A stretch of 18,011 nucleotides of DNA. Origin: a virus (lineage: Duplodnaviria; Heunggongvirae; Uroviricota; Caudoviricetes). The notes beneath the pieces were generated by a model. That model was not told the origin of the DNA. It searched no databases and saw only the letters and a program-made list of their open reading frames with translations. The stretch covers positions 1 to 18,011 of the IMG/VR virus record IMGVR_UViG_2630968500_000004. One strand, given 5' to 3'. The translations under genes were made by a program, and so were the position numbers. Shown piece by piece: positions 6,869-8,747 of the stretch. Within the stretch, counting starts at the first letter, position 1. Each line of letters starts with the position of its first letter.

Positions 6869-7327
6869 ATGACAACACAGACGCAGCACGACCTCGCACC
6901 CGCTAACCAACCCGAATTTGAACTGACCGTCACGCCGGTCCCCGATGAACAGCGTATCGATTTCTGGCCACAGTACTTTGGCGCTATCCCGCAGTGGCTA
7001 CTCCTGGAGCCGCATATCTTCGCCTGGATGGACCGCTTCTGTGAGGGCTACAGCGGTGGTATCTGGTCGTTCTACACCCTCAGCAATGGCGGCGCATTTA
7101 TGTCCCCCGAGCCTGACAACGATGAGACATGGCGTCTGTTTAACTGCCTGAACGGTAACGATGCCCAAATGAGTGCAGAAGCAGCAGGTATTGCTGTCTG
7201 CCTGATTGCGTATAGCCACCATGCCTGCCGTACAGAATGTGACGCGATGACCGCACACTATTACCGCCTGCGGGAGTATGCCATGCAACATCCAGAGGCT
7301 CACGCCATTCTGCGTATTATCGACTGA
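6869..7327 (+). CDS. yfjX: Antirestriction-family protein (YfjX-like)
   Basis: Frame of ORF 6656..7327. Start set to the internal ATG 6869 (GGAG 9 nt upstream), giving 152 aa, the length of E. coli YfjX; the upstream extension looks non-coding. Family call is by resemblance, not alignment. Confidence 0.7.
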   Translation: MTTQTQHDLAPANQPEFELTVTPVPDEQRIDFWPQYFGAIPQWLLLEPHIFAWMDRFCEGYSGGIWSFYTLSNGGAFMSPEPDNDETWRLFNCLNGNDAQMSAEAAGIAVCLIAYSHHACRTECDAMTAHYYRLREYAMQHPEAHAILRIID

Positions 7328-7342
7328 CCGAAGGAGCAACAG

Positions 7343-7819
7343 ATGAAACAGCTTTCCTTTTTACCCGGCGAGATGACGCCACAGGACCGGCGTCTCATTC
7401 AGCGGGCGCTCAGGGCTCTGGACCGCCACCTGCATGAGCCCGGCGTAGCCTTCACCTCTACCCACGCCGTACGTGAATGGCTGCGACTGCATATGGCCGC
7501 GCTTGAGCGGGAAGAGTTCCGGGTGTTGTATCTGGACAACCAGAATCAGTTGATTGCCCATGAAACGCTCTTCACCGGCACGATTAACCGCACCGAGGTG
7601 CATCCCCGGGAGGTGGTCAAACGTGCTCTGCACTTCAACGCGGCGGCGGTGATACTCGCGCATAACCATCCTTCCGGCGAGACGACACCTAGCCAGGCCG
7701 ACAAAACCCTCACGCAGCGACTGGTTCAGGTGCTTCAGCTGGTGGATATCCGTGTCCCTGACCATCTGATTGTCGGTGGCAGGCAAATCTATTCGTTCGC
7801 AGAACACGGTCTGCTTTGA
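7343..7819 (+). CDS. yfjY: RadC-like JAB-domain protein (YfjY/YeeS/YkfG family)
   Basis: 158 aa with the JAMM-type motif HNHPSG and the conserved PSQAD segment. AGGAG upstream. Confidence 0.85.
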   Translation: MKQLSFLPGEMTPQDRRLIQRALRALDRHLHEPGVAFTSTHAVREWLRLHMAALEREEFRVLYLDNQNQLIAHETLFTGTINRTEVHPREVVKRALHFNAAAVILAHNHPSGETTPSQADKTLTQRLVQVLQLVDIRVPDHLIVGGRQIYSFAEHGLL

Positions 7820-7827
7820 GGTATTAC

Positions 7828-8049
7828 ATGAAAATTATCAGTAAACGCAGGGCAATGACGATATACCGCCAGCATCCTGAGTCCCGAATCTTTCGCTACT
7901 GCACCGGCAAATACCAGTGGCACGGTAGCGTCTGTCATTACACCGGCAGGGACGTTCCGGATATCGCCGGAGTCCTCGCGGTATACGCCGAACGCCGCCA
8001 GGACCGCAATGGGCCCTATACCTGCCTGATGAGCATCACCCTGAACTGA
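7828..8049 (+). CDS. ypjJ: DUF987-family small protein (YpjJ/YeeT-like)
   Basis: Frame of ORF 7816..8049. ATG 7828 preferred (GAGG upstream; 7816 is a TTG inside the RadC stop region). Sequence pattern RIFRYCTGKYQWHGS ... GPYTCLMSITLN is typical of YeeT/YpjJ proteins. Confidence 0.7.
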   Translation: MKIISKRRAMTIYRQHPESRIFRYCTGKYQWHGSVCHYTGRDVPDIAGVLAVYAERRQDRNGPYTCLMSITLN

Positions 8050-8067
8050 CAATAGTGGAGAACTGTA

Positions 8068-8385
8068 ATGAGCAACCCTACCAGGGGCCTGCAGCGGGAG
8101 ATTACACTGCGCCTGGGAGCCCGTCTGGTGCAGGAAGGCAATCGACTGCATTATCTGGCTGACCGGGCCAGCATCACCGGCAAGTTCAGTGACATCGAAT
8201 GCCGGAAGCTGGATGAAACATTCCCGCACTTTATCCGCCAGATGGAATCGATGCTGACCACCGGTGAACTCAGCCCCCACCATGCCCACTGCGTTACCCT
8301 GTACCACAACGATTTAACCTGCGAAGCCGACACCCTTGGCAGTTGCGGCTACGTATACATCGCCATTTACCCCACTCAGCGTTAA
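8068..8385 (+). CDS. yfjZ: Type IV antitoxin, CbeA/YeeU/YfjZ family
   Basis: 105 aa. Strong resemblance to E. coli YfjZ/YeeU ([34 protein letters not shown] ... [13 protein letters not shown]). Paralog assignment by synteny only. Confidence 0.85.
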
Positions 8386-8405
8386 TTACCTACACGAGAG
8401 CAAAC

Positions 8406-8747
8406 ATGAAAACTTTACCTGCAACAACTCAGCGGGCGGTGAAGCCCTGCCTGTCACCCGTGGCTGTCTGGCAAATGTTACTGACACGTCTGCTGGAACA
8501 GCACTATGGTCTGACAATAAACGACACGCCATTCTGCAATGAGGCTGTGATTAAGGAACACATCGATGCCGGTATCACCCTAGCCGATGCCGTGAATTTT
8601 CTGGTAGAAAAATACGAGCTGGTTCGTATCGACAGGAAGGGATTTAGCTGGCAGGAACAATCTCCTTATCTCCGGGCTGCAGACATTCTGCGAGCGCGGC
8701 AGGCAACTGGCTTGTTGCGGCAAAGCCGTAACAACGTAGTACGATGA
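8406..8747 (+). CDS. ypjF: Type IV toxin, CbtA/YeeV/YpjF family (cytoskeleton-inhibiting toxin)
   Basis: Frame of ORF 8343..8747. Start set to ATG 8406 ([37 protein letters not shown]), 113 aa, immediately downstream of the antitoxin. Paralog assignment by synteny only. Confidence 0.85.

Follow-up and report, generated by a model that had tools for sequence, protein, structure and literature searches.

The 18,011-nucleotide (nt) stretch analysed here (the window; positions 1 to 18,011 of IMG/VR virus record IMGVR_UViG_2630968500_000004) carries at positions 6869-8747 a block of five genes, specifying an anti-restriction protein, a RadC-like protein, a DUF987 protein and a type IV toxin-antitoxin pair, and with a probability of roughly 0.92 this block represents the yafX-ykfG-ykfH-yafW-ykfI operon at the tRNA-proximal end of a CP4-6-type integrative island (a 'P4-like cryptic prophage') in an Escherichia coli chromosome. 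Over its full length the window matches the chromosome of E. coli strain G5 (NZ_CP060065.1, positions 3700964-3718971) with 100% identity, and the block is confirmed to be a five-gene operon that was already known from E. coli K-12, real but ordinary.

Each protein of the block was aligned with its counterparts in three paralogue sets of E. coli K-12, those of CP4-6, CP4-57 and CP4-44, and for all five genes the best identity was obtained with CP4-6 (Table 1); the antitoxin, with R58 where K-12 has L58, and the toxin, with T7 where K-12 has I7, are the only proteins to differ from that set, by one residue each. The K-12 CP4-6 operon (b0248, b0247, b4504, b0246 and b0245) has the same genes, order, gene lengths and intergenic spacing, and the two loci also share flanking DNA and chromosomal neighbourhood: the 400 nt on the 3′ side of the toxin gene match the K-12 ykfI-thrW spacer identically, the match (window 8740-9146) ending, with a 1-nt deletion, after 17 nt of the thrW 3′ end and including the same thrW attachment remnant, while in G5 another 12.9 kb separates this point from intact thrW, after which come proA and proB. 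It is on account of the 99-100% identities, the identical spacer to thrW and the thrW-proA neighbourhood that the block is assigned as the CP4-6 orthologue at the CP4-6 locus. The genes upstream are likewise CP4-6-like, with a GTPase 97% identical to YkfA, a DUF932 protein 99% identical to YafZ and a 155 amino acid (aa) protein 99% identical to YkfB. The original prediction had named the block after the CP4-57 series YfjX-YfjY-YpjJ-YfjZ-YpjF, a label that the alignments with K-12 do not bear out. The CP4-57 operon, lfgA(yfjX)-lfgB(yfjY)-ypjJ-yfjZ-ypjF, does consist of the same five families in the same order, with the same 20-nt antitoxin-toxin gap and an upstream hairpin; moreover, RefSeq names the upstream window genes yfjR, ypjK and yfjS, and ypjK and the lipoprotein gene (95% identity to YfjS as against 93% to YafY) are slightly nearer to CP4-57. 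All five block proteins are nevertheless 99-100% identical to the CP4-6 proteins and just 76-85% identical to those of CP4-57, the spacer leading to thrW is that of CP4-6, and K-12 CP4-57 is located not at thrW-proA but at a record position of approximately 2.76-2.78 Mb, next to ssrA. Membership of the CP4-57 set is therefore refuted by the alignment identities and was rejected as extremely improbable. The stretch around ypjK and the lipoprotein gene, marginally nearer to CP4-57, is a small mosaic. At 4544-5522, which holds an intact yfjR-like WYL/HTH regulator gene and ypjK, agreement with CP4-6 is exact in the 5′ part, the ypjK part resembling CP4-57 more closely, and the region is a local mosaic for that reason. 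The window island differs from K-12 CP4-6 in that the latter has suffered a deletion of about 565 bp in the yfjR-like/ypjK region, leaving the pseudogenes ykfK and ykfL where the window copy is intact, and in that the window island has a nonsense codon in ykfF, is cut off from thrW by a second element of 12.9 kb and carries a locus of heat resistance further upstream.

The block comprises five intact open reading frames (ORFs) on the + strand, each with an ATG start, no internal stop codon and a purine-rich Shine-Dalgarno-like sequence, separated by gaps of 15, 8, 18 and 20 nt; the limits first proposed for it correspond exactly to the first ATG and the last stop codon. The ORF coordinates equal the RefSeq annotation of the identical G5 segment, in which the pair is named yafW and ykfI. 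All five family assignments made earlier were upheld by Pfam matches of near full length (E values from 1e-39 to 1e-68) together with the alignments to the K-12 paralogues, while NCBIfam offered no model for four of the five proteins; structures have been solved for close relatives, namely ArdB (2wj9), YfjZ (2ea9) and YeeU (2h28).

Table 1. Features of the five-gene block and its flanks, with percentage protein identities to the three K-12 paralogue sets
Feature	Position	Strand	Product or description	Match or basis	CP4-6	CP4-57	CP4-44
yafX orthologue	6869..7327	+	ArdB/KlcA-family anti-restriction protein, 152 aa	PF03230 Antirestrict, 1.8e-39	YafX, 100	YfjX/LfgA, 76	
ykfG orthologue	7343..7819	+	RadC-like JAB/JAMM-domain protein, 158 aa	PF04002 RadC, 5.7e-47	YkfG, 100	YfjY/LfgB, 78	YeeS, 82
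ykfH orthologue	7828..8049	+	DUF987 protein, 73 aa	PF06174, 3.5e-40, profile 1-64 of 65	YkfH, 100	YpjJ, 85	YeeT, 66
yafW orthologue	8068..8385	+	CbeA-family type IV antitoxin, 105 aa	PF06154 CbeA_antitoxin, 1.7e-49	YafW, 99	YfjZ, 84	CbeA, 61
ykfI orthologue	8406..8747	+	CbtA-family toxin, 113 aa	PF06755 CbtA_toxin, 2.2e-68, profile 1-112 of 112	YkfI, 99	YpjF, 80	CbtA, 58
Upstream hairpin	6824..6846	+	terminator-like, ACGCCAGC-CATCGCC-GCTGGCGT then TTTTATT	consensus scan; RNA fold			
Downstream hairpin	8808..8842	+	terminator-like, 14-pair stem and T-run	consensus scan; sequence identical in K-12 CP4-6			
thrW remnant	9129..9146	.	17-nt remnant of tRNA-Thr thrW 3′ end, attachment-site repeat	identity to K-12 ykfI-thrW spacer			

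The identification of the last two genes as a type IV toxin-antitoxin pair is supported by the CbtA_toxin and CbeA_antitoxin matches, by the position of the antitoxin gene directly upstream of the toxin gene on the same strand, and by the retention of toxin residue F65, which is invariant in a four-way alignment with the K-12 toxins and is required for FtsZ binding in CbtA, YpjF and YkfI (PMC5624674). The antitoxin also matches the solved structures of YfjZ (2ea9/2jn7, approximately 4e-57) and YeeU (2h28, 3.7e-37). The founding type IV pair, CbtA/CbeA (YeeV/YeeU) of CP4-44, belongs to the same Pfam families and conserves F65, but its proteins, of lower identity, have longer termini, its genes are 88 nt apart and no ardB gene lies upstream, yeeR being found in its place. 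Overproduction of K-12 YkfI is toxic, yielding lemon-shaped cells that subsequently lyse, and the toxin binds FtsZ (PMC5371832), doing so at the H6/H7 loop via a surface that includes F65 and blocking cell elongation as well (PMC5624674). It is neutralised by each of YafW, YfjZ and CbeA, in keeping with the general cross-neutralisation of K-12 toxins by these antitoxins; YafW has been reported to interact weakly with FtsZ in addition to neutralising the toxin, and neither YafW nor YkfI autoregulates the operon (PMC5371832). The window toxin would, when overproduced, be expected to bind the H6/H7 loop of FtsZ, to block elongation and to give lemon-shaped, lysing cells, and the CbeA-family antitoxin would counteract it. 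For YafW a type IV mechanism is an extrapolation from CbeA, which, according to work cited in PMC5371832, neutralises CbtA not through toxin binding but by making FtsZ and MreB polymers more stable.

The first gene of the block specifies a member of the ArdB/KlcA family, as indicated by its PF03230 domain and by its similarity to the solved structures of ArdB (2wj9, 3.5e-71) and KlcA (2kmg, 1.3e-23). ArdB of pathogenicity island (PAI) II of E. coli CFT073 (PDB 2WJ9) and KlcA of IncP plasmids (PDB 2KMG) share this Antirestrict fold; KlcA is plasmid-borne within a kil/kor operon, whereas the window ardB gene is the first of an operon that includes a toxin-antitoxin pair and is carried by a chromosomal island. 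Low-level expression of K-12 YafX, which was tested alongside ArdB and KlcA, was found to relieve restriction in vivo by all four type I families, by 9250 fold for EcoKI (type IA), 27 fold for type IB, 7510 fold for type IC and 1080 fold for type ID, but did not inhibit EcoKI in vitro (PMC2836571). YafX would accordingly be expected to act indirectly in relieving type I restriction in vivo, as EcoKI is not inhibited in vitro, and the activity was demonstrated with a protein identical to that of the window. The original prediction had suggested that both the anti-restriction and the RadC-like genes have roles during element entry. Only for the anti-restriction gene is this supported experimentally, by the in vivo activity of YafX against type I restriction (PMC2836571); for the RadC-like gene the only experimental data, those on its CP4-57 paralogue LfgB, point to a stress-response protease and not to entry (PMC10846083).

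The RadC-like assignment of the second gene is based on the PF04002 domain and an intact JAMM motif, HNHPSGETTPSQAD, at YkfG residues 107-120 (pattern H-x-H-x7-S-x2-D), which is invariant among the K-12 paralogues; the protein also scores above the cut-off for TIGR00608 (154.8 bits) and matches PDB 2qlc (2.5e-25). It is not a full-length RadC, as it falls below the PRK00024 equivalog cut-off (167.7 bits vs 180) in an alignment that covers only profile positions 79-211 of 212, the N-terminal part of RadC being missing, and it is thus a short, JAB-only RadC-like protein. With its motif intact, YkfG may act as a JAB/JAMM metalloprotease-like protein; its CP4-57 paralogue LfgB has been reported to be a protease that cleaves the antitoxin MqsA under oxidative stress (PMC10846083), although this cleavage, and regulation by MqsA, have been shown for the CP4-57 paralogue only. 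The third gene encodes a DUF987 protein, as judged by its PF06174 match.

In agreement with the earlier view of the block as conserved rather than novel, homologous modules were found in 5038 of the 5426 complete E. coli genomes, at a median of three places per genome (G5 itself has three), and at least 443 E. coli records carry the window allele at 99% identity or more. Gene order was compared among 80 loci from different species of Enterobacterales other than E. coli, and was ArdB-RadC-DUF987-CbeA-CbtA in 70, with a DUF905 gene also upstream in 49 of these; Serratia, Yersinia and Pantoea were among the genera showing the block order. In two Serratia loci (L005/L006, 5753-6100) the CbeA and CbtA genes are separated by an additional ORF of 94-115 aa that matches nothing in Pfam, and in Yersinia a DUF4942 gene is next after the toxin gene.

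The five genes would be transcribed together, a proposal that draws on their same-strand gaps of 8-20 nt, on the single terminator-like hairpin after the last gene and on the paralogous operon in the literature, the five CP4-57 genes having been treated as one operon that is induced under oxidative stress (PMC10846083). The downstream hairpin, which starts 61 nt after the toxin stop codon, is likely to be the end of the operon. The upstream hairpin (8-bp stem; RNA fold -14.9 kcal/mol, z -2.85) separates the DUF905 pseudogene from the block, at a distance of 22 nt from the first ATG, and is present at the same position in K-12 CP4-6 and CP4-57 and in Serratia, Pantoea and Yersinia. Of the 80 species loci, 56 have a hairpin followed by a T-run 14-26 nt upstream of the ardB ATG; its stem (GCCAGC/GCTGGC) hardly varies among them and its loops differ. 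In most of the loci that lack it the ArdB homologue has another N-terminus, so that the stretch examined falls inside the gene. The simplest reading of this hairpin is that it is the intrinsic terminator of the DUF905 gene, in which case, given that no sigma-70 consensus match was found between 6400 and 6869, expression of the block would need read-through or another start site. A scan of the whole window against Rfam at the gathering threshold returned no known RNA family, and sigma-70 consensus counts in the region were not above shuffle expectation (6 vs 3.6 +/- 1.7). That the hairpin is instead a regulated attenuator, or an entry- or stress-responsive switch gating the operon, with the JAB protease and DUF987 protein as functional partners of the pair, we consider quite improbable.

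A related proposal is that the five genes form one integrated system, in which, for example, the JAB protease and DUF987 protein might regulate how active or how long-lived the antitoxin or toxin is and the hairpin might serve as a regulated attenuator, gating expression after entry or under stress. The gene order shared by 70 of the 80 loci, the recurrent hairpin and T-run with their variable loops ahead of the first ATG, the cleavage of another system's antitoxin by a paralogous JAB protein (PMC10846083) and the observation that YafW alone neutralises YkfI only in part from a single plasmid (PMC5371832) would all be compatible with such a system. Co-expression of all five CP4-6 genes was, however, as toxic as that of yafW-ykfI alone (Wen et al., PMC5371832), indicating that the three upstream genes yafX, ykfG and ykfH provide no extra neutralisation of YkfI in K-12. 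Furthermore, CP4-44 has a working CbtA/CbeA pair without ardB, five of the 80 loci retain the pair with no detectable DUF987 gene, and the shared order could be no more than an inheritance from the ancestor of an island family that is young and narrow in distribution, since the DUF987 homologues listed have identities of 71% or more throughout. An integrated five-gene system is for these reasons judged unlikely, and the block is preferably read as the known CP4-6 operon, the net role of which would be twofold: anti-restriction would aid establishment of the island after transfer, and the toxin-antitoxin pair may retain the island or respond to stress.

A number of observations weigh against this reading of the block as a functional CP4-6 operon. 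No sigma-70 promoter match was obtained by consensus scan between 6400 and 6869, and a terminator-like hairpin stands 22 nt ahead of the first gene. Expression, toxicity and neutralisation in this strain are carried over by extrapolation from the K-12 proteins, from which the toxin and antitoxin differ by one residue each (T7/I7 and R58/L58). No physiological trigger has been established for type IV toxins (PMC5371832), and an interaction of YkfI with MreB was not detected by two-hybrid analysis (Heller et al., PMC5624674). The DUF987 protein is without a functional lead, a confident structure model having given no fold match, and none of the five proteins is matched by a PADLOC defence model, on which ground a role in anti-phage defence was rejected. 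The missing promoter-like site directly upstream would also suit the view that a cryptic element has left in the block only a silent, decaying remnant without present function in this strain, as would the nonsense codon in the neighbouring DUF905 gene (at 6679-6681), the IS5 fragment upstream and the displacement of the island from thrW by another element. Set against this are five full-length ORFs whose products are identical, or nearly so, to experimentally active K-12 proteins, and the at least 443 E. coli records that hold the block at 99% identity or more; the conserved, intact reading frames argue against free decay, and such a remnant seems improbable. Oxidative-stress and biofilm phenotypes have been reported for K-12.

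The main worth of the result is one of annotation. The block had been put forward as an anchor for the type of island, and it served as such, showing the DNA around it to be an island of the CP4-6 type at thrW; the sequence comparisons support correction of the paralogue label to CP4-6 (YafX-YkfG-YkfH-YafW-YkfI), the earlier interpretation being otherwise right in substance. Most E. coli genomes contain the operon, of whose five genes three (yafX, yafW and ykfI) have been studied by experiment in K-12.

As regards the immediate flanks of the block, the DUF905 gene (ykfF orthologue, 6532-6771) is a pseudogene in which TGA replaces a Trp codon. The thrW remnant is located 383 nt past the toxin gene and marks the end of the CP4-6-type island, beyond which a second integrated element starts. 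Between the toxin terminator and this remnant a short ORF (8863-8961; 32 codons, MQPEVEVLTDHNEL...) is the counterpart of the K-12 pseudogene ykfN, from which it shows no difference in sequence.

The second element, of approximately 12.9 kb, extends from window 9147-18011 on to position 34050 of the G5 segment L001 and so separates the island from intact thrW. It encodes a tyrosine integrase adjoining thrW, a second recombinase, an Icd-like protein and a P4-type Toprim/DUF927 primase (893 aa), along with a DUF4222 protein, a baseplate-hub-like protein, a central-spike protein with a GpV apex motif and a DUF2280 protein, and close to each end is a copy of a 24-nt imperfect direct repeat (window 9203-9226 and L001 33913-33936). 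The element has the appearance of a small phage satellite that bears tail-tip genes.

On the other side, the island core is immediately preceded by the locus of heat resistance (G5 segment L001 1-12635), which is only about 6 kb from the toxin-antitoxin block and comprises clpK, hsp20-GI, yfdX1/2, hdeD-GI, trx-GI, kefB-GI, psiE-GI, htpX and an S1C protease gene, the end of the last of its genes occupying window 1-635. In a 419-aa ORF at 860-2119 on the - strand, an N-terminal fragment of a WYL domain is joined to the C-terminal DDE domain of an IS5-family transposase; within this interval RefSeq annotates only an IS5 fragment (860-1435), and some 1.1 kb at 1436-2550 is without annotation, with low G+C near 2000-2500. 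Several other strains, wastewater isolates among them, share the 9.1-kb junction between this locus and the island (window 1-9144) at 99.9-100% identity.

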